From contig OZ219791.1 in the NCBI GenBank assembly GCA_964291215.2, positions 2,400,001 through 2,464,000 of the forward strand: a stretch of 64,000 bases of DNA, given 5' to 3'. Under the pieces are notes generated by a model. It searched no databases, was not told the origin of the DNA, and worked only from the letters and a program-made list of their open reading frames with translations. The DNA is from Alphaproteobacteria bacterium. GTDB taxonomy: Bacteria; Pseudomonadota; Alphaproteobacteria; MPNO01; UBA830. Shown piece after piece: positions 7,693 through 48,038 of this stretch. The position numbers were made by a program, and so were the translations under genes. Each line of letters opens with the position of its first letter. Within the stretch, counting starts at the first letter, position 1.

Positions 7693-8398
7693 GCTGCCGT
7701 CTCCATCGTGCCGTGGTGGAACCCGGCGGCAGCGCCCCGCCCTCCGGTGCGCCGACCGCCGCCCCGCTCACGGCCAGACCTTCCCTCCTGTCGGCGCGGA
7801 GCGGGGGAGGCGGTGTTCCCGACGGCGGGCGGCGGGCCGGCGGCACGGGTGACCGGTAGCTGGAGAGCACCCCGGCCATGGCCACACCGGCACGTTCGGG
7901 CTGTAATCGACCGGCGCACACGCGGCGCGCCAACGATGACAGGAAGGACCGCGAAGATGGGACAATGCGCGGTAAGGACGGCACGCTCAGGCGGCGGAAC
8001 GGGAAAGCGCGGCGGGAGCCTCGACCGTTTGCTCCGCCATCTCGACGACGCGGACCAGTCAGGGAGGCGCGGCAGTCTCGTCGCACTTGTCGTTGTGGAA
8101 GAAGTCCACGCAGATGCTGGCAGCGACCCGCGCCGCGCCCGCCTTGATCGAACCGTGCGCATGGCGCGCGATCATGTCGATCCTGGCGTGACCCTGCAGC
8201 CTGGAGGAGACGGCAACACATGGCGGCCCGGTTGGCGGCGATCAGATCCAGGCACGTAACTACTTGCCCCTTGGTTTCGGCTTGCTTTGGTCGTTATTTC
8301 CCGAGCACCTTCCCGAGCGGGCCACGGTTTCGTGACAGCGGGTTGACACCGCAGACCGCCCCGGCTACGTAGGTCCGTCGTTTCAGACGGGGCTTCGG

Positions 8399-9053
8399 TT
8401 GGGATATTTCGGATCAAAGGCGACGAACGGTCTTTGCCAGATGCTTCTGGGCCTCCAGCCTCCGCATTGTGCCTATGTCGAAACGCACTTGGGAGGCGGG
8501 GCTCTGATGAAGCGCAAGGCCGCTGCGGCGCGCAGCATCGGGATCGACCGCGACCGGCGTGTGCTTGACGGGTTCGAGTGCGGCTACCCTGTGGAGCTTG
8601 TTCACGGCTGCGCCCACGCGTTTCTGGCCGGCTTCCCGTTCCAGGGCGCGGACCTGGTCTACAGCGACCCATCTGCGCGCGACCCGCCGATCGCGACGGC
8701 GGTACCGCCACGACTACACCGAGGCCGACCATGTCGCTCTCCTCGACCTGCTCAAGGTCCTGCCGTGCCAGGTGATGGTCTCGGGACACCCCTCGGCGCT
8801 GTATGACGACATGCTGCGGGACTGGCGCCGGATCGCGCTTCAGGTGACGACCCGGGGCTAGGTCCGCACCGAGATGGTCTGGTTCAACTTCGCGCCCGAC
8901 CGGATGCACTGGGCCGGCCATGCCGGGCGGGACAGGACCGACCGCCAGCGCATCAAGCGCAAGGCCGCCCGCTGGGCGGAGGGCTACAAGAAGATGCCGC
9001 CGGGCGAGCGCCTCGCGGTGGTCTCTGCGATCATGGCGGCGGAGGCGGAGTGA
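8399..9053 (+). pseudogene. D12-class N6-adenine DNA methyltransferase (disrupted)
   Basis: GYFGSK, YVETHLGGGA (SAM motif), IGID, LVYSDP[PY] with the catalytic motif partly deleted near 8670, VMVSG, RTEMVWFNF; further break near 8860; TGA overlaps the transposase ATG. Confidence 0.85.
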
Positions 9054-10488
9054 TGCCGACGGTGAACGGGGCATCGCTGCGCGCGGAACTCGATGACGCG
9101 AAGGCCCGGATCACCACGCTGCGCGCGGACGGCAAGGTGTCCGAAGAGGTCGACGCCGTGATCGGGGTCCTGCTGCCGGGCATCCTGGTGGCGGTGTTCC
9201 TCGAGAAGGCCACGCCGAAGACCTCGCGCAACTCCGGCCTCCCGCCGTCGCAGACGGACCAGACCGCGCGGCGCGCCGGCAAAGGCTCCCGCGGCAAGGG
9301 ACCGAAGGCGAGGGAGACGGCATCGGGCAACCTGCGCACGGTCACCGTCATCGGATCCAGCCCGGTCACCGAGTGCCGGCAATGCGGCCATGACCTGTCC
9401 GCAACCGTGTGCGCCGGACACGAGGAGCGTGTCGAGATCGACATCGTCTTCGAGACCGTCGAGCGCCGGGTCGAGGCCGAGATCAAGGACTGCCCGCGCT
9501 GCCGCGCCCGGAACAAGGGCGCGTTCCCCGACACCATGCCGGGGCCGCTCCAGTATGGACCCGGCATCGTTGCCTATGCCGTGCACCTGCTCTGCGCGCA
9601 GATGGTCCCGCTCAAGCGCACCGCAGCCATGATCCGGGCGATGACCGGACGGCTGCTCTCCGAGGCCACGCTTCTCGGCTTCGTCTCGCGCCTGCATCAG
9701 GCGCTGGAACCATGGGAGGCCGCCGCGACCGGGAAGCTCCTCGCCATGCCCGTGCTGAACGTCGACGAAACCTCGCTGCGGGTGGACGGAAAGAACCACT
9801 GGATCCACGTCTGCTCCGGCGGACAGGTCACCGTCAAGCGGCTGCACCGCAAGCGCGGATGCGAGGCCATCGACGACATCGGCATCATCCCACGCTACCC
9901 AGGCGTCATCGTCCACGACTGCTGGAACTCACCTACGCACACTGCAAGCATCAGCTGTGCGGCGCCCATCTGTTGCGCGAGCTTCAGGCCGTGACCGACA
10001 GCAACGGCTGGCCGTGGGCGCAGAGAATGCGCAGGCTTATCGCGCGCCGGCAGGTCATGCGACGGCCGGACAGGCGCCTCTCCATGCGCCAGTACAGGCG
10101 AATCGCACGATGCTACAGGGAGATCCTGGAGCAGGGCCGAAAGGAAATGCCCGAGATCCCGAAAAGAGAAAAAGGCCGCCGGGGACCGGTCGCCAAGTCC
10201 GATGCCCACAACCTTCTCGAACGCCTCGCCGCCCAGAGACGGAACGTCCTGCGCTTCTCAAGGCGGGCCGACACACCGTTCTTCAACAATCGCGCTGAAC
10301 GAGACTTCCGGATGGCCAAGGTCAAGCAGAAGGTCTCCGGCTGCTTCCGAACCATCGCCTGCGCAAACGCCTGGTGCCGCATATCAAGCTACATCCGGAA
10401 AATGGCGGCACTCGGATACAACCCGCTCGTCGCCATTAACATCGCACTGCAGGAAAAGGCCGTCGAATGTCTCAATCAACTCGAATGA
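9053..10488 (+). pseudogene. tnpC: IS66 (ISBst12-like single-ORF) DDE transposase, frameshift near 9925
   Basis: TSRNSGLPPS, CxxC zinc finger, YGPGI, VDETSLRV, VHDCW, HQLCGAHLLREL, FNNRAERDFRMAKVKQKVSGCFR. Confidence 0.92.
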
Positions 10489-10551
10489 TATCGGGGCAAG
10501 TAGTTACCCAGGCACTTGATATTCGTAGGCCATTGGCCTATATGTGCAGGG

Positions 10552-10833
10552 ATGGAGTTTGAATGGGACGAGGCCAAGAACAGTGCCTGTTTCGAGCGTC
10601 GCGGTTTCGACTTCGCCTATGCCGTCCGGGCCTTCCTCGATCCGCACCGGATCGTCGCCTAGGACCGCCGGCGGAACTATGGCGAGGACCGCTACCGGCT
10701 GCTCGGCACAGTCGACGGGCGAGCCTATGTCGTCGTCTACACGGTGCGGGGTTCGGCCGTTCGCATCATTTCGGCCCGCAAGGCCAATCGTAAGGAGGTC
10801 GCGAACCATGAGCACAACACGCATCAGGATTGA
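10552..10833 (+). pseudogene. brnT: BrnT-family toxin with in-frame TAG at 10660-10662
   Basis: MEFEWDEAKN...GFDF...YGEDRY...VVVYT...RIISARKANRKE translated manually. Confidence 0.85.
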
Positions 10834-11143
10834 TCCCGACGATCCGTCCACCCTGCCCGAAGGGCGGTTCGATCCCGCCAGGGTGGACGCCACGACCGAG
10901 GCAGAGATCGCGGCCCAGGAGCGGGAGGCCGAGGCCGAGGCCTTGCAGGACATGGCGCGGTATGCCCGCCGGGTCCGGCGGCGGCTGGGGCTTTCCCAGA
11001 CCGAGCTGGCGCGGCGCATCGACGTGCCGCACGCGACTATCCGCAACTGGGAGCAGGGGAAGCGTTGCCCGACCGGAGCGGCGCGCGCCCTGTTGCGGGT
11101 GCTTGACAAGGTGCCGGAAACCGCACTCCGCGTGCTGACCTGA
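10808..11143 (+). CDS. XRE-type HTH antitoxin
   Basis: RRRLGLSQTELARRIDVPHATIRNWEQGKRCPTGAARALL; AAGGAGG RBS; overlaps the toxin end. Confidence 0.85.
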   Translation: MSTTRIRIDPDDPSTLPEGRFDPARVDATTEAEIAAQEREAEAEALQDMARYARRVRRRLGLSQTELARRIDVPHATIRNWEQGKRCPTGAARALLRVLDKVPETALRVLT

Positions 11144-11832: not shown

Positions 11833-13383
11833 TCACGCCGCCTGCTTCGTATCGGTCAACGGATGCTTGAAGTAATGCTCATCGAGCGTGTCAAGAATGG
11901 CCTTGCGCGAAGCCTGCCTCGCATACTCCCGCACCTGGGCGCCATCGCGCCAGCCGATCTCTATCCACGTACGTTTGGCCTTTTCCGTTTCAAGGAGTGC
12001 CAGCGCCTCGTCATCAAACAGGCCGGTCGTCCAGATCTCGAAGCCGAGCCGGCAACCCTGGAACCGTTCCTCGGCGCGGTGAAACCGCCAGATGCGGTTG
12101 ACTTTCTCAATCCAGGCCGCGATTTCATCCGGTCCGATCCGGGCGTCCGGCTGGCGGGCACGGCATTCGTAGAACCAGCATTCCTGCTGCTCCTTGATGC
12201 GCCGGACATCGATTTCGGCGGGCTTGCCGGACTTGGGGTCATAGACGATCTCACCGATATCGATGGTGTTGCCGTCAACTTCCCTGACAAGATAGCCGAC
12301 AATCATCTCGAACAAGGCGCCGCGCAGGTTGCCGGCGGCGCCTTCGATCGCCTTGAGGTCGGAGAGTAAACCAATGACACGGTCCGGGTTGGCGGCGGCG
12401 ACCGCGGCGGCACGGGTCAGCGTATCAATCAGTGAACCGATGGCCTTGGCGACGGTGTCACCGAACAGATTGCGGGTTGTGGCCATGACCACGCCGGCCG
12501 ATCGGCCAGCTCGCAGGGCTTCGCGGGTGTAACCGTCGGCAAGCAGGACCGGCATGAAAGGCACAACGCGGCGCATGGCCTTGAGCATGCGGACCTTGCG
12601 CAGGAAGTACTGAATGTGGGGCACATCGAGCGTGCCGCCGCAAAACACATCGGCGACAAAGAACCCCGGCTTGCGGTCATCGCTGCCGCCGGACGCCAAG
12701 GGCAACAAATAGCTGGGGCCGGTGAGGTCCCAGTGGAAGGTGCTGAACTTGGGGGCATGATGGGCATCGCGGATATCGATGGCGTTGTAGCTGGCCATGC
12801 CCAGCTTGCGCGCCCATTCGCGCAGGCCGTCCATGAGCACATCCTCGGCGATCTTGCGGGCGCGGAACGCGTGCGGGCCGGGGCCATCGAAAATATGACG
12901 GCTAAGAGCGATGCATTCGCCCATCTCGCCGATCTCGAACCGCTCAACAAGGCCGGCACTTACGAGGTTGTCCAACACACCGGATAGAGGTACCTGCTTC
13001 TTCTGTGCCTCGGGCGAGCCGGCCACGACATTGAATCTGGTGCGCTGAGCCAGCCCGCCCCGAGTCATCAACCCGTCCAGGGCCAAGCCGTAGATTGAGC
13101 CGGATTCACGCAGGTCGCGGACGAGAGCGTCCCAGAATTTCTCCGAGTTCCGGTCGTCCTCGTGGTAAAGAAAGGCCTCGTTTTTCGGAAGCAGGCGGAT
13201 GGGAAATTTGCGGACCGGCGGCGAAACGCGCGAGACGCGCTTCTTGGCGGCATCAGCCGTCAGGCCATGCCCGTCAGCGAGCGCGCCGGCGAGCCGCGAA
13301 GCGCGCATCGGGCCGTGTGCGGCCAGGATCGTTCGTATCGGGTCAGCGGATGTCACGCTGCTTAATATATATTTCGTTGCCAA
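11833..13383 (-). CDS. Uncharacterised protein with PD-(D/E)xK-like nuclease domain(s), candidate defence gene
   Basis: Intact 516-aa ORF (start uncertain); GALFEMIV...AEIDVRR...WFYECRA restriction-fold motif, plus an upstream WDLTGP...FFVADV...PVLLADGYTREA degenerate unit. Confidence 0.7.
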   Translation of the reverse strand: MATKYILSSVTSADPIRTILAAHGPMRASRLAGALADGHGLTADAAKKRVSRVSPPVRKFPIRLLPKNEAFLYHEDDRNSEKFWDALVRDLRESGSIYGLALDGLMTRGGLAQRTRFNVVAGSPEAQKKQVPLSGVLDNLVSAGLVERFEIGEMGECIALSRHIFDGPGPHAFRARKIAEDVLMDGLREWARKLGMASYNAIDIRDAHHAPKFSTFHWDLTGPSYLLPLASGGSDDRKPGFFVADVFCGGTLDVPHIQYFLRKVRMLKAMRRVVPFMPVLLADGYTREALRAGRSAGVVMATTRNLFGDTVAKAIGSLIDTLTRAAAVAAANPDRVIGLLSDLKAIEGAAGNLRGALFEMIVGYLVREVDGNTIDIGEIVYDPKSGKPAEIDVRRIKEQQECWFYECRARQPDARIGPDEIAAWIEKVNRIWRFHRAEERFQGCRLGFEIWTTGLFDDEALALLETEKAKRTWIEIGWRDGAQVREYARQASRKAILDTLDEHYFKHPLTDTKQAA

Positions 13384-41726: not shown

Positions 41727-43694
41727 GGGTGGGGCCTGATGCTCGATCGCCAGAGCGGCGGCAAGGTGGGTGTCCGTCGTCAGGTTGCCGGCAGCGCCAA
41801 CTGCTTCACCCAAGTTGGCACTTTTCGCGGCCTGGAATTTTTATCGCGTTGCGCGATTTTTTGTCGGCCGATTTCAACATGGCACTACATCCTGTTGAAT
41901 TCTGTCAGCTTGTGAGGCGGCTCCTCGTGCGGCGGGTTCGACACCAGCCGCCGAGGAGATTTCGGCGACCTCGGCGGTCGGGCGCGTGTCCTGTCGGTTG
42001 ACGATCAATGCGCCTGGCGCAGGCGCGTGGTGACCCTGATCCAGCTCCGCATGCTCTCGCGGATCGATGTCCAGCACTTGTCGATGCCCCGCGCGGCCAG
42101 CGGATCAGATGCACCGCGTGGAGCACGGCGATCAACAGGTGGGAGGTGATGCGCTGGTCGAGCTGGATCGGGCGCAATCCGAGCTCGGATTTCAATGAAC
42201 GGAAGGTGGCCTCGATATCCGTGATCCGCCAATATGCCCCGAGGACGGTCTCGATATCCCGGTCGCTGGTGCGCAGTACACAGGCGCCCGCGTTGTCTTG
42301 TCGTCTGTGGCTGAAGCGCACGGCAGTTGCGTTGGCGCCGGCCTTCTCGACGGTGATCTCGTAGTGCTGGGCGACGGTGGAGAAACGCTGCTCGAGACCG
42401 CTCTCCAGCACCTTGTCGTAGCGCTTGAGCCGGCCCTTGGCCGAGAGGCCGTCGTGGAGCTTTGCCGCCTCGAAGCTGTGCCGCCTGCGGTCAGGAATGT
42501 CGTCCTCGGCCCTCTTCCTGCTCTCGCTGACCACGTAGAGCCTCGCCTCGCCATCCTCGCTGGCAAGGCGCCAAGCCTGCACCTCGTGGTTGGTGCTGGT
42601 GATCAGCAGGGCCTCGGGCTCACCCTCGGGCGGCGCCGGCCTGGCGCCGCGGCTGACCGCGATCCAGCCGTAGCCGTGCTCGCCACGCGATGTTCGCCTC
42701 GGTGGCGATGCCGGCGTCCATGACTACCGTCGGCTTCGCCGCCGGGCCCGCCTCCAGCCTCGACAGCGCATCACCCAGCGTGTCCGGTTCGCTCACGTTG
42801 CCCGGCAAGACCTCGCAACTGCGCGGAAAGCCCGCGCCGCGCCAGCGCAAGCGTGGGGCAATCATTGCGCTTCTGCTTCGAGCGCCCGAAGCGGGGGAGC
42901 TTGCCGTCGGCGCGGCCGTGAACATTGGTGAGATCGTAAAAGGCGATGGTGTCGGGGATGTCGAGCAGCGCGCGCTCGCGGTTGAACAGTTCTTTCTGGA
43001 TGGCGGCCCGGTGACGCAGGTCGCCGATGCGGTACAGTGTCTTGCGCGCCTTGCCCTCCAGATCCAGAAGCTCCGCGGCCGCGCTGTCATCGCGCAGCCA
43101 GCGCTCGCGCTCGCTGGCCGGATGAATCATCCTGGCGACGATCAACGCACTCGCGATACGCCCTTCGCGGCCCGTGATGCCGAGGTCGTGGAGGATATCG
43201 GCGAAGCCGAGATCGCGGAGCGCCTCGAAGCACAGGCGCTCGCAGCCGACCGAGCGCGGGTTCTCGAGACTGTCGAGGTTGACGGTCGCAATTTGCGTGC
43301 GTCTTCCTCCAGAGCGTCGGCGCGGAACCTCCGGGCCCTGAGCTTGTTGACGATGTCCTCGGCTGCGGCCTGCACGCGGCTTCGAACAGCGGCGGGTGGC
43401 CGTGGAGCAGCGCTTCGGCGAGCGCGGCAACCTCCTTCCAGTTCTTGCGCGCCACCGGATAGTCGGTACCGAGATTGAGCAGCGTGCGCTGCCTGACCTT
43501 GTCGCCGATGCGCTGAGAAAGCACGAGCCGGTAGCTGTCGACGGGTTTGCCGTCTGCGGTGCTGTGGGTTTTGGTTGCCCTGATGAACATGTTGGCTGGA
43601 GGCTTTTGTGTTGACGAGGCTCCGAATATACCGGGTTTGGCGGCGGGGCGAATCGGCAATATTCTGGCACCACAGCGGCCATCCCGGACAGGAA

Positions 43695-44979
43695 GCGGAA
43701 TCATTGGATTGAAGGGTATGGTGACTTCAGTTTCATCCGGGCGTTTGCGGTGGTGAAGCGCCAATCCGCCGGCCGCATTGCGGCGCTCGACCCACGCCAC
43801 GGTCTCCCGCAGTATGGTGTCGCGGTCGGGAATGCGTCGTCGAAGGCTCTGCCGCGACAGCGCACCGATCTCGATTTCGGCCATGTTGAGCCAACTTCCG
43901 TGCTTCGGCGTATAGCGAAACTCGAACCGCACCCGCATCGCCTCCTTGAGAGGAAAGGATTCGTACAAGGATGCGGGACCGTGCGTGTTCAGGTTGTCCA
44001 GTACGATCTTCTTGCCGGGAAAATGGTCATCCGCGAGTTCCCGGATGAACTGTGCCCGGTCCCGGGCCGTGTGACGGTCGGTGACTTTCACCGTGCGCCA
44101 GTTTTGGTTCGGCGCGAAAGCCAGGAAGAGGTTAGCCGTGCCGTCATACTCGTAATCGACGATTTGCCTGGGGGACGGGGAAGGCGGGTTTCCTTCGTCT
44201 GCTGTCGGCTGGTCTCGCAAACCAGAACCTCGTCTTCGACAAAGTCATGTTGACAGATGTTTAGCACCTCCTCCATGGCCGCCACGAACGGCGCATTTCG
44301 GCTCGGTGGAATGCACCAATACTGCTTCAACCACCGCTTGATCTCTTTTTTTCAGTGTTTTCCGTACCGTTTCCTTTGAAATGCTCTCGACGATCTCCAT
44401 CTCCACCAGACGACCAGCCAGCAGCTTCAGCGTCCACAGCCCTCGGGCAGAGAAGAGCGAGCCAGGGCGACCGGTTTCGCCTCCTTCGCCCCGTCCGGAA
44501 GCTTCGGCCGGCGGTTCTCCTGTTCCCGGCGGCGGAGGGCGGCCTCCAGAACGCAGCGCAGGCACTCGACTGTCGAGGCGCCGATGCCCGGACTACGCGC
44601 AATGTCGACATCCCGGAGCTTGCCGCCGTCGCGCCCCTCGTCCGCCATCAGCAGAATCTGCGCCCGACGGCTCCGGTACCGTCGACGATCGCCCGCAGCT
44701 CCCGGCGCCGAAAGTGTCACTCGACAGAGCTTCCTGCCCTGAGAGTTGGCCATGATCCGCTCCGATCCCTGTGCCGAACACCTGCAGGCAGGCTCGGTTC
44801 CCGGGGATCGGATCCGTCCCGATCCTCAGAAGAGCGCGGGTGCCTGTACCTTCGGCATCAGGTCTGTGGGGATGAACAAGCAAGATCCGTACCGAACGGG
44901 TGCGCACGGGTGCCGGCACGGACCGACACGGAAATCCTGCCAGAATACTGTCGTCAATTCAACATTTCCGCACTACTAG
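43695..44979 (-). mobile_element. IS630-family element (decayed)
   Basis: RRAQILL, WTLKLLA, SKETVRKTLKK with a poly-A slippery site near 44345, DYEY, VLDNLNTH, YTPKHGSWLNMAEIE; imperfect TIR GCGGAA...TTG.ATTGA. Confidence 0.85.
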
Positions 44980-45179
44980 TGTTGTGTCCCGCAAATACCA
45001 GCAGATAATCGTTCAAGCCTGTCGAAGATTGCGTCTGCGGTTGCGACTCACACGAAAGGGGATGTGGATTTTCGGTGGGTACCAGAGGGGAAGTTGGCGG
45101 CCGCGGAGCATATCGAAAGGCCTCCTATTGCGAGAAAGACCGAGAATATATCATACTTATTTATGGGACACTACACTAG
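44976..45179. mobile_element. MITE of about 200 bp with CTAG at both ends
   Basis: TIR TAGTGTTGTGTCCCGCAAAT vs TAGTGTAGTGTCCCATAAAT; no coding capacity. Confidence 0.75.
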
Positions 45180-45204
45180 GCAATGTCACAAAAATGCCAA
45201 CATA

Positions 45205-46771
45205 GTAACTGCTCACCCCCTGGTTCCGGCTTGATGTCGGGGTAGAGCAACGAACGGGTTTTCGTGGAGATTTGACACTGCATGCCGATTCGCTTAGTGG
45301 TGGTCATCGAGAACGACGGGGACCGCCAGTGGGCTACTTTGGATCGAAGGCGACGAGCGGGCTGTGCCAGCTGCTTCCGGGGCTCCAGCCTCCGCATGAT
45401 CTGTATGTGGAAACGCATCTCGGAGGCGGCGCGCTGATGAAGCGCAAGGCCGGGTGATGGCGACGGGCGGCGCGCGAGGAGTTCGAAGCGGCCAAGACCG
45501 CGGCGCTGCCGGCAAGGTGGCGGAAGAGGCCGTGATCCGCGTCCTCGTCATCCTGCTCGACATCATCATCGTCGTCCTTCTGGAGAAGACTACGCACGAG
45601 CCGGAACTCCGGTCTGCCGCCGTCACAGACGGACAAGAGCGTGCCGGAAGCAACGGCCCGAAGCCGAACCGGCAGATGGGCGACAACCTGCCATCGTCGA
45701 GGAAACGGTCGCGGCCTGCGACGCCTGCGGCGCTGACATCGACGGCCCCGTCGATCGGGAGCGCCGCACGACATCGTGTTCGAGGTCGTCGAGCGCCGCG
45801 CCGAGATCAAGGAATGCCCGAAGTGCAAGGCCCGGACCAAGGGCCGGTTCCCCGACAACATCCCGTGCAGTACGGCATCGGCATCCAAGCCCTCGTCATC
45901 AACCTGCTGGTCGCCCAGATGCTGTCCCTGCGCCGTGCCGTCGCGCTCGTGCAGGCGATCTCCGGCATCAAGCTCTCCGAGGCAACCTGCCTCAGCTATG
46001 CTTTCACGATGCGCTCGCGTCATGGGAGGAGGCTGCCGTGGCGCACCTCCTGCAACGCCCGATGTCGACGATTTCGGATCAACAGTAAGTGGCTCCATGT
46101 CGTGGGACCCTGACGTGCAAGTTCCCGCACCGCAAGCGCGGCCGAGAGGCAAGAGATCGGCATCATCCCGTGCTACAGGGGCGTCCTGGTCCACGACTGC
46201 TGGGCCTCGTACATGGGCCAGTGTAGCCACCAGCTGTGCGGCAGCCACCTGCTGCGCGAACTGACCTTTGTCGTCGAGGCTACCGCTGGGCGCGACTGAT
46301 GAAGAGCCTGCTCCGCGAGGTCTGCCACAAGGTCAACAAGAGCGCATCCAAGACCCTGAACGACGCCGGGCCGTGCGCAAGCGCTACCGCACCATCCTCA
46401 CGCAGGGCGCTAGGGAACTGCCCGATATCCCGCCGCCGCCGAAAGGAAAACGCATAGCAAAGTCCGACGCGCACAACCTGCACGAACGTCTCGTGAAACA
46501 CGAAAAGTCAGTCCTGCGCTTCACAGACGACCCCAACGTCAGCTTCACCAACAATGCCGGAGAACAGAAGATCAGGATGGCAAAGGTCAAGCTCAAGGTG
46601 TCCGGATGCTTCCGCTCCACGCAAAAGCATGGTGCCAAGCTACCTCACCTCCATGGCCGCACTTGGCTACAATCATCACGTCGCCACCCAGATCGCCCTC
46701 GACGGAAAAGCCGCAGACATCATCAACGAGCACTACGACCAATCAGAACCCAACTAGGGGTGAGTAGATAC
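45205..46771 (+). mobile_element. Second IS66-family element with a methyltransferase remnant (45329-45457) and decayed transposase
   Basis: TIR GTAACTGCTCACCCC / GGGGTGAGTAGATAC; 8-bp TSD CCAACATA (45197-45204 / 46772-46779); GYFGSKATSGLCQ...YVETHLGGGALMKRKA then TGATG into TnpC motifs. Confidence 0.88.
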
Positions 46772-46915
46772 CCAACATATAGTATATCGAGTGAGATTGC
46801 TGCATAAATTTTGCCTTCAACTGACGCAAAAAGTGCCAACTTGGGTTCAAGGAGAGCGAACAGAATGTCCGTGTGGCGGTCTTCCGGGTGGGTGCGCCAG
46901 GCTAACTGGTAGTAA

Positions 46916-48038
46916 GGTCCCGCGCCAAAATAGATTGTTTTTTGGTGTGGATCTGCCATTGATGATGTCATGGATGCTATGGTCGATACGCTGCGATCCA
47001 AATTTGTGGTGTTGCGTCCGGTTCTGGACGAACGCGCGCGGCGCCTGTGGGCGGCGGCCCGTGCCATCGGGCGAGTGGCCGAGGCGACGGGGATGGGCAC
47101 CGTTCGCGCCGGAGGAGCTTGATTCGGAGTCTTCGAGTGAGATTCCTTCAGGATGTTTGCGTCGCCCCGGCGGCGGGCGCAACGGATCCGGGTTTGGTGG
47201 CGGCGCGCGAGCTTGAACCGATGACGCGCGGCGATCCGGAGAGTTCGCTGCGGTGTCACAGTGCCGCTGGCGGACCGTCTTGCGGTCGAGGGCGTCAGCG
47301 AGCGCACGGTGAACCGGCTGCTCCACGATCTGGGGTACAGCCTCCAGGCCAATCGCAAGACGCTGGAAGGTCGCCAGCACCGGGATGCGCAATTCCGACG
47401 CGCCGGGTGCGCGCGTTCCAGAGGCCAGCCTGTGGTGACACGAAGAAGAAGGAAATCCAGTACCGCAATGGCGGCCGGGAAGGGCGACCCTGAAGCCGTC
47501 AATGTGCATGACTTCCCCGATCCGGAGCTCGGATCCCCTGCGGGGTCTACGACCTCACCGCCAACGCCGGCTGGGTCAGCGTCGGGCACGACACGGCGGC
47601 GTTCGCGGTCGAGGCCGCTGGTGGCGGCAGATGGGCCAGCTGGTCTATCCCGATGCCTGCTGATCACCGCGACGGCAGCAGCCGCAACCGGCTGTGGAAG
47701 CTGCAGCACCTCGCCGACGAACTCGGGTTGAAGGTGTCGGTGGCCCACTTCCCGCCCGGAAAGTGGAACAAGATCGAGCACCGGATGTTCTGCCATATCA
47801 CCCGGAACTGGCGCGGCCGGCCCCTCGTCAGCTACCAGGTGATCGTCAAGCTGATCGCCGCGACCACCACCGGGCTCACCATACGCTCGCACCTCGACGA
47901 GAACAGCTATCCGCTCGGGGTCAAGGTCAGCGACGATCAGATGGATGGCCTCGCCATCCGCAGAGACCCGTTCCACGGCGAGTGGAACTACACCCTCACA
48001 CCACGGACATAACGAACATATTATTTTGGCGATATCCC
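46916..48038 (+). mobile_element. ISAzo13-family element (decayed)
   Basis: GYSLQANRKTLEG, HRDAQF, HDFPD, HFPPG-KWNKIEHRMFCHITRNWRGRPL, FHGEWNYT; GCCAAAATA sub-terminal IR; TAA duplication. Confidence 0.88.

Follow-up and report, generated by a model that had tools for sequence, protein, structure and literature searches.

Insertion sequences of the IS66 family with an Upf31-like, Dam-fold protein gene and its candidate promoter-operator in front of the transposase

Introduction

Insertion sequences (IS) of the IS66 family are recognised by short terminal inverted repeats starting GTAA and by an 8-bp target duplication. Genes that do not serve transposition can lie inside IS ends, as the passenger genes of transporter IS (tIS) do. 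Most known controls of IS are host factors (Dam, histone-like proteins) or RNA and translation tricks. Here we describe two IS66 elements, element 1 (8256-10507) and element 2 (45205-46771), in a 64,000-nucleotide stretch of an alphaproteobacterial genome (GCA_964291215.2, contig OZ219791.1, positions 2,400,001 to 2,464,000), in which a gene for a DNA adenine methylase-like protein (gene 1) precedes the transposase (gene 2). We refer to this whole stretch as the window, and to gene 1 with its promoter region as the cassette or module. The genome examined (G000) comprises 6.15 Mb in 2 contigs, and its copies fall into lineage A (the ends of element 2), lineage B (a third lineage) and lineage C (element 1).

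The closest described IS belong to the ISBst12 group. Its member ISDge4 likewise encodes a single IS66 transposase without tnpA and tnpB and produces an 8-bp duplication, and its ends also begin GTAACT (GTAACTGCTCAGCA, compared with GTAACTGCTCACCCC in lineage A), according to PMC12898284. The group is described there as having one open reading frame, whereas the elements reported here hold an extra gene and a candidate promoter-operator between the left end and the transposase. They are best filed as a two-gene variant of the ISBst12-like layout; this layout is known, and what appears to be new is an Upf31-like gene with its candidate promoter-operator inside IS66 ends.

The closest described protein is Upf31 of the IncP-1beta plasmid pBP136. 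In its report (PMC11997246), Upf31 lowers the output of its own promoter from 4.76 to 0.09 XylE units, and the substitutions Y180A, F185A and W198A abolish this repression. The protein keeps the DPPY motif, yet DpnI and MboI digests revealed no GATC methylation, and SMRT (single-molecule real-time) reads gave no signal when it was produced from an expression vector in E. coli ER2796. The CAGCATCG repeats are named there as the likely Upf31 operator, and a second phenotype is linked to KorB, for which a protein contact is proposed. The words 'insertion sequence' and 'transposase' do not occur in that paper.

Also close are the N6-adenine methyltransferases of the Dam/DpnM alpha group (E. coli Dam, T4 Dam, DpnM and M.CbeI), with which the IS protein shares the catalytic fold, the motif order and DPPY. 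Host Dam controls the transposase promoters of IS10, IS50 and IS903, as stated in PMC9296519. In those elements a host enzyme acts on GATC, whereas here the Dam-fold protein is borne by the element and its candidate site is a palindrome with a 10-nt gap. We found no description of the combination of gene 1 and transposase in the literature; ISfinder and REBASE lay outside this search, and prior cataloguing as a passenger-gene IS is possible.

Results and Discussion

Element 1 is an IS66 insertion with two genes

The features of element 1 are as follows.

8248..8255, no strand: left target duplication CCAGGCAC, an 8-bp match to 10508-10515; the empty site is known
8256..8270, + strand: left terminal inverted repeat GTAACTACTTGCCCC, complementary at 15/15 positions to 10493-10507
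8343..8371, + strand: candidate promoter-operator of the module, degenerate in element 1 (alignment on TTGAC, enrichment and spacing; function by analogy with Upf31)
8399..9053, + strand: pseudogene of an Upf31-like Dam-fold 'methylase' (gene 1; intact form ~219 aa), by comparison with the intact sister protein P0001
9050..10488, + strand: IS66 transposase TnpC (gene 2) of the ISBst12-like single-transposase type, frameshifted near 9930 (PF03050, NF033517)
10493..10507, - strand: right terminal inverted repeat, exact reverse complement of GTAACTACTTGCCCC
10508..10515, no strand: right target duplication CCAGGCAC, the same 8 bp as the left copy

A preliminary description of the window, made from the sequence alone, had placed a perfect 15-bp inverted repeat and an 8-bp duplication around two genes that overlap in a TGATG at 9051-9055. 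Both the coordinates and the overlap were reproduced. The unoccupied target of element 1 lies ~50 kb away, as a paralogous copy, at G000:C2:2357883-2358088 (99.5% identity over 206 nt) and also occurs as a contig joint in two of four sequencing runs (X1 and X2). Since the empty target exists both in the genome and as a joint in these runs, element 1 is a true insertion.

Gene 2 encodes a TnpC-type DDE transposase. PF03050 scores above its cut-off in two frames (E 9e-20 and 1e-14), the product is 52-57% identical to the transposase of an intact element (L168), and the intact relative L131 reaches 246 bits against a cut-off of 180 (PF03050/NF033517). GTAA-type repeats and 8-bp duplications were found in element 1 and in the genome loci. 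Among annotated transposases, those closest to this lineage are IS66 proteins of Bacillus and Planococcus, at ~35% identity. The canonical tnpA-tnpB-tnpC layout is absent, the methylase-like gene filling that space, and none of the five PF05717 matches in the genome falls inside either window element. Gene 2 may start at GTG 9050 or ATG 9053, both of which overlap the stop of gene 1.

Gene 1 of element 1 has lost 5 nt behind 8670, which reduces DPPY to DP and shifts the frame, and it contains a TAG stop at 8859-8861. The 5-nt deletion is present in the second lineage-C copy, and runs X1 and X3 show it in short-read contigs without gaps, which rules out an assembly artefact. A contig of run X4, from a sponge metagenome of a separate study, retains the five bases and differs at 33 other letters over ~415 nt. 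Position 8859 is C in all four runs; the TAG may be confined to this copy or may stem from an error of assembly. The partial loss of DPPY, and the disruption of both window copies, had been noticed in the preliminary description and hold; both copies are dead or non-autonomous derivatives.

The product of gene 1 belongs with Upf31

We used P0001, an intact gene-1 sister protein of 219 aa, as the query for homologues. It is 43% identical to Upf31 (95/219 residues, E 4e-63), and the match covers the full length including the C-terminal domain. The intact pairs of gene 1 and transposase number 46 when made non-redundant, out of 129 kept and 165 with an open gene 1. Among these 46 IS proteins, the position of Upf31 Y180 holds an aromatic residue in 38, that of F185 an F in 41 and that of W198 a W in all 46. 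Element 1 has H, R and W at these positions.

The gene had been labelled a D12-class methyltransferase, which applies to its fold but only weakly to its sequence profile. Against PF02086 the intact copy scores 14.3 bits (E 0.035), under the curated cut-off of 22 bits, and against TIGR00571 it scores 24.4 bits, under that of 114.85 bits. A sequence search of the PDB returned only DpnM, at E 0.5, and an Atlas search returned only automatic names ('DNA methylase'). The AlphaFold model (predicted local distance difference test score 88.8) has the Dam fold: its residues 1-168 match DpnM, M.CbeI, T4 Dam and E. coli Dam with Z of 17.7-16.8 (next match 14.2), at root-mean-square deviations of 1.8-3.0 Å over 141-154 aligned residues out of 241-258, and Foldseek agrees. 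However, ~100 residues of the Dam recognition domain have no counterpart in the model, motif I and DPPY are ~55 residues apart as against ~150 in DpnM, and two extra C-terminal helices are present at 181-217. In motif I the IS protein reads H-L-G-G-G where DpnM reads F-V-G-G-G.

DPPY and the motif I region, E-x-H-L-G-(G/S)-G, are kept in 46/46 IS proteins, and DPP is invariant in an alignment of 84 proteins reaching down to 38% identity. The median ratio of nonsynonymous to synonymous substitution rates (dN/dS) is 0.17 for 766 of 1035 pairs, the 269 saturated pairs being excluded. Gene 1 is therefore under purifying selection, a check that the preliminary description had proposed.

Orphan methylases of plasmids and phages often counter restriction, and gene 1 might likewise encode a broad adenine methylase that shields element or host DNA or rewrites the host methylome. 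Homologues match 196 plasmid records, of which 134 are conjugative plasmids, and also temperate phages; type II methyltransferase models match as well (PADLOC E 1e-21, phrog_56 E 1e-20). This role is nevertheless highly improbable. An IS within the chromosome is already protected by the host methylases. The gene is accompanied by a palindrome of strict spacing (see below). Of the 206 copies in this genome, 194 have lost the gene, and the host therefore does not retain it copy by copy. For Upf31, genome-wide methylation is absent from the results (PMC11997246), and such methylation by the IS protein is unlikely. By domain content the gene product belongs with Upf31 and is no bona fide Dam-class methylase. 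The active DNA methylase of the preliminary description is thus opposed both by the 43%-identical Upf31 and by the missing target-recognition domain, and its restriction shielding or methylome reshaping gained no positive evidence.

A gapped palindrome in the promoter of gene 1

Of 97 distinct upstream regions from IS, 95 have TTGAC at 40-100 nt before the gene, compared with 4 of 70 viral ones. Alignment of 67 non-redundant regions on TTGAC gave the consensus TTGACA(A/G)CATAG-N10-CTATGCT. This has the architecture of a promoter with TTGACA as -35 box, a spacer of 17 nt and TATGCT as -10 box, in which the left arm of a palindrome lies within the spacer and the central ten bases are variable. 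ATAG-N10-CTAT occurs in 56 of 67 metagenome upstream regions (0.15 expected). The gap is strict: 62 loci have a spacing of 10 nt, and at most 1 was found at spacings of 6-9 and 11-14. The two adenines of the operator, at positions 11 and 25, occur in all 67 non-redundant regions, and a paired change of the arms to GTAG/CTAC occurs in three loci.

The register is identical in upf31p, which reads TTGAC AGC ATCG N10 CGAG. The IS cassette thus shares with Upf31/upf31p the promoter-palindrome register, DPPY and the C-terminal domain; it differs in its half-site (ATAG compared with ATCG), in lying before a transposase inside an IS instead of in a plasmid backbone, and in having no KorB partner. Of 69 phage homologues, 12 likewise have ATAG-N10-CTAT upstream (0.16 expected), in many cases as 2-4 tandem copies. 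The palindrome occurs twice before a Xanthomonas plasmid homologue and is absent before the two other plasmid homologues viewed. Because it is found before phage and Xanthomonas plasmid homologues too, the palindrome goes with the protein and is more than a -10 box. The phage homologues with two to four tandem sites of this type are L208, L215, L219, L221, L232, L233, L242 and L255; these sites suggest that the same protein regulates phage promoters.

Of six intact elements, five have a single palindrome, located at the promoter, and the sixth has none. We also asked whether the ends of the elements hold the operator or GATC. The six intact elements have no operator there and at most one GATC within 60 nt of either end, and this idea was rejected. 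In the genome examined, the consensus palindrome occurs 12 times, always at lineage-B ends. An inverted repeat in the own promoter is thus a feature of the IS family that is degenerate in both window copies. Element 1 has TTGACA at 8343-8348, GCAG as left arm at 8351-8354, a 10-nt spacer, CTAC as right arm at 8365-8368, and TACGTA as a -10-like box at 8366-8371; in a plain sigma-70 scan of element 1, no promoter passed.

The invariant adenines of the operator raise the question whether the protein is an active methylase whose target is gapped and very long. Such an enzyme would mark the adenine of its own operator, the A at -11 being the obvious candidate, and the methyl mark would set the state of the promoter, as a self-contained version of the Dam control of IS10 and IS50. 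The conservation of motif I, DPPY and both operator adenines fits this idea, as do the structural matches to DpnM, T4 Dam and E. coli Dam, and a rare 18-bp gapped site could have escaped the SMRT test of Upf31 in ER2796. However, Upf31 with the same DPPY showed no methylation in two assays, and its repression depends on C-terminal aromatic residues, according to PMC11997246; the lack of ~100 residues of the Dam recognition domain also speaks against it. We consider methylation of the own operator rather unlikely.

The cassette precedes transposases of several families

A total of 3689 homologues of P0001 were found at E<=1e-10. We read the best 80 of 311 genome loci, which come from 17 other genomes with the labels Alphaproteobacteria, Dehalococcoidia and Ca. 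Binatia and are skewed to close kin, and the best 80 of 565 metagenome loci. An IS66 transposase lies directly behind the gene in 78 of the 80 genome loci, and in 51 of the 80 the ends match and are flanked by a perfect 8-bp duplication. In 69 of the 80 metagenome loci an IS66 transposase starts within ~320 nt of the gene. These counts bear out the preliminary view that the pairing is conserved and no one-off capture. In viral loci no IS66 transposase was found (0/80).

The TGATG overlap, which had been taken as part of the architecture, is not conserved. Of the 69 metagenome loci, 6 have a transposase start that overlaps the stop of gene 1 and 57 have one 2-46 nt downstream; in the other 6 no start was found. 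It is the close spacing that is conserved, with starts at -4 to +46 nt from the gene-1 stop in 63/69 loci, in an operon-like layout.

The module is also not specific to IS66, since it precedes transposases of other families inside their own inverted repeats. In L128 an ISAs1-like transposase follows the module in a 2136-bp element with 16-bp ends, and in L203 an IS4 transposase follows it in a 2334-bp element with 26-bp ends. Further exceptions among the 11 metagenome loci are L138, with a weak match to the IS66 leucine zipper, L167, with an IS701 transposase, L163, with an Ogg-like gene (see below), and three loci near contig ends. L129 and L130 hold an IstB piece on the opposite strand or little sequence. 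In L165 (165-2767) the module stands before a 532-aa frame without Pfam or NCBIfam match, inside 14-bp inverted repeats; this frame is possibly an unclassified transposase.

The genome G036 contains 22 full-length copies of the small gene. The four that were read are 3212-bp elements in which the gene precedes a canonical TnpC, and in the one that was scanned, the opposite strand carries tnpA and tnpB at the right end. One of these IS66 elements, L106:661-3872, has GTAAGCGG ends, with the cassette before tnpC.

The 46 non-redundant pairs comprise six TnpC lineages. Identity between lineages is 21-37% for the transposases and 67-79% for the small proteins, and inside a lineage the values of the two proteins are closer (88/80, 86/86 and 76/66, for example). 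The small proteins are far more alike than the transposases, and one cassette therefore appears to have been recruited by several transposase lineages. A quick tree of 73 proteins places the 51 IS-linked proteins together with L163 in a single branch amid homologues of phages and plasmids (Shimodaira-Hasegawa approximate likelihood ratio test, 97). The protein tree clusters by transposase lineage with five changes, the minimum, and monophyly of the largest group is only marginally rejected on the quick tree (approximately unbiased test, p 0.044), which leaves the order and direction of transfers unfixed. Random samples of 400 genomes at the phylum and class level contained two matches to the small protein, at 44-45% and both outside IS, and six to the transposase. 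With so few matches, the distribution of the element is patchy.

As in tIS, a gene that does not serve transposition lies inside IS ends. Its fixed position, its own operator and its presence with several transposase families argue for a regulatory part rather than interchangeable cargo.

A probable autorepressor of transposase expression

With the boundaries, gene content, fold, Upf31 homology of protein and site, selection, modularity and dispensability of the cassette observed as described in this section and the next, we propose by analogy with Upf31 that the cassette is probably an autorepressor that throttles transposase expression and so limits the frequency of jumping. A newly arrived element would transcribe both genes from the cassette promoter. 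As the small protein accumulates, it would bind the palindrome as a dimer through its C-terminal helices and close the promoter. The transposase would then appear in a burst on entry to a new cell and be held low afterwards; sister copies that share this operator would be restrained in trans as well. The retained S-adenosylmethionine-binding and DPPY motifs suggest that the old active site is used to bind or flip an operator adenine. Among the roles named in the preliminary description, self-control of transposition is likeliest.

Several points weigh against an autorepressor. All the functional evidence is carried over from a plasmid protein of 43% identity, and the invariance of DPPY and the motif I region in 46/46 proteins would be expected of an active enzyme. 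The operator is degenerate in the window lineages (GCAG/CTAC in C, GCAG/TTAG in A) and in most lineage-A copies; together with H and R at the Y180 and F185 positions, this means that repression may be lost or altered in the window copies. The right arm of the palindrome is partly constrained by the -10 box, and the single transcript across both genes is something that we infer. The association of cassette loss with high copy number, described in the next section, comes from two genomes, without a control.

A wider version of the proposal, which we hold only tentatively, is a portable, transposon-encoded epigenetic switch in which a Dam-fold dimer without recognition domain would bind the palindrome with its 10-nt gap and flip or methylate the -11 adenine in the transposase promoter. 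Such an element would carry its own replication-sensitive brake, independent of host Dam and able to silence sister copies in trans. IS66, IS4 and ISAs1-like elements would each have recruited it from plasmids or phages, and those that lose it would reach tens to hundreds of copies per genome.

If the cassette is an autorepressor, a methylase-fold repressor swapped among transposase families inside IS ends would be a further route by which IS limit themselves. A function would be offered for thousands of proteins, the 3689 homologues, now annotated 'DNA adenine methylase', and surveys of methylomes and of defence systems would need caution before they count these as methylases. Since the operator is a short, defined sequence, binding, repression and self-methylation are each directly testable.

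Elements without the cassette

Cassette-free relatives of 1553-1583 bp (L291, L292 and L297) have similar GTAACT ends and perfect duplications. L291 and L297 carry the lineage-B end, and the three transposases are 47-52% identical to that of lineage B. A search for the small protein in the genomes of these three loci gave no match. In another genome, G729, at least 41 places match an element with a decayed gene 1 (40 of 293 candidates were scored), and the three transposases scored are all without stops. As cassette-free and cassette-decayed elements transpose, the cassette is not needed for jumping. The high copy numbers in G729 and in lineage A here suggest that loss of the cassette raises copy number.

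Elements that move without the cassette are also what would be expected if it had been captured mainly for its promoter, with a protein that regulates itself or serves elsewhere and has no effect on transposition. In L163 (2995-4521), a member of the IS clade stands before an Ogg-like glycosylase gene with no transposase behind, and Upf31 has its second, KorB-linked phenotype (PMC11997246). A mere passenger or promoter donor is nonetheless improbable, since the gene is intact and under selection (median dN/dS 0.17) before transposases of many lineages, and repression of the shared promoter would also hit a transposase gene at most 46 nt downstream.

Upf31-like genes were observed directly before an 8-oxoguanine glycosylase-like gene (PF22175) in L163, L114 and L115, both inside and outside the IS clade, and in L163 a PfkB/nucleoside deoxyribosyltransferase gene follows the glycosylase-like gene. 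This layout recalls nucleotide-based defence operons.

Element 2 and the other copies in this genome

The features of element 2, which belongs to lineage A, are as follows.

45197..45204, no strand: left target duplication CCAACATA, matching the right copy
45205..45219, + strand: left inverted repeat GTAACTGCTCACCCC of the lineage-A type, whose ends occur at 182 loci in the genome
45272..45300, + strand: TTGACA box and degenerate candidate operator (upstream-region alignment)
45329..45457, + strand: remnant of the methylase-like gene, ~41 N-terminal codons fused to the stop by an internal deletion (alignment)
45454..46757, + strand: IS66 transposase with several short deletions (PF03050; blastx pieces in three frames)
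46757..46771, - strand: right inverted repeat, 13/15
46772..46779, no strand: right target duplication CCAACATA, matching the left copy

Element 2 had been put forward as a second case of the same pairing. Its duplication and the relationship of its gene 1 to that of element 1 (123 nt in common, 83% identity) are confirmed, but only ~41 codons remain. Its TGATG at 45455-45459 has remained because a deletion took out the rest of the gene, as in ~120 sister copies, and does not reflect a conserved junction.

A search of the genome with the N-terminus of gene 1 gave 206 loci, 182 of lineage A, 12 of B, 2 of C and 10 unassigned. The right end, for which a script took the best candidate, was located for 147 of them, and 106 of these 147 have a perfect 8-bp duplication. 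Gene 1 is intact in 12 of the 206 loci (10 of lineage B and 2 of lineage A), and the transposase starts ~125 nt past the start of gene 1 in 120 loci. No stop-free frame of at least 330 aa spans the whole transposase in lineages A or C, and in lineage B the transposase is frameshifted in its N-terminal part. With gene 1 rarely intact and the transposases broken, the copies in this genome are mostly non-autonomous or dead. This genome, with ~200 copies of which most are without gene 1, shows the end stage of decay.

In lineage B, gene 1 is undeleted whereas the transposase has about ten deletions; these intact genes were picked for being intact. We do not claim selective keeping of gene 1 during transposase decay, as 11 of 13 longer lineage-A copies have deleted the gene.

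About 165 lineage-A copies of 1.4-1.7 kb are without most of the small gene and without an intact transposase. The 108 that were aligned are all distinct, with a median of 3% substitutions, and no autonomous lineage-A parent was found in the assembly. Deletions of 5-7 nt abound in copies of lineages A, B and C (at 8670, 9172 and 10034 of the window, for example), making up 61 of 131 distinct gap events in the 108 lineage-A copies. Alleles with and without such deletions both occur in short-read contigs of other runs, so that the deletions look like real, ongoing erosion. In 16 lineage-A gene deletions the mean microhomology is 2.06 nt, compared with 0.84 nt at random (0/2000), and the copies are possibly eroded by microhomology-mediated repair.

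Neighbouring sequences

Element 2 lies in a nest of broken IS (window 42620-48012) with a DDE_3 (IS630-like) fragment and an ISAzo13 fragment. A 22-bp inverted repeat close to it (44976-44997/45158-45179) is part of a repeated sequence with dozens of genomic matches, probably a miniature inverted-repeat transposable element. On the minus strand, at 11836-13383 of the window, is an apparently intact 516-aa frame without Pfam match, whose C-terminus gives the impression of a nuclease. Directly downstream of element 1, at 10560-11143, lies a toxin-antitoxin-like pair made up of a broken small gene, which we take to be BrnT-like, followed by an HTH_3/MqsA-like antitoxin gene.

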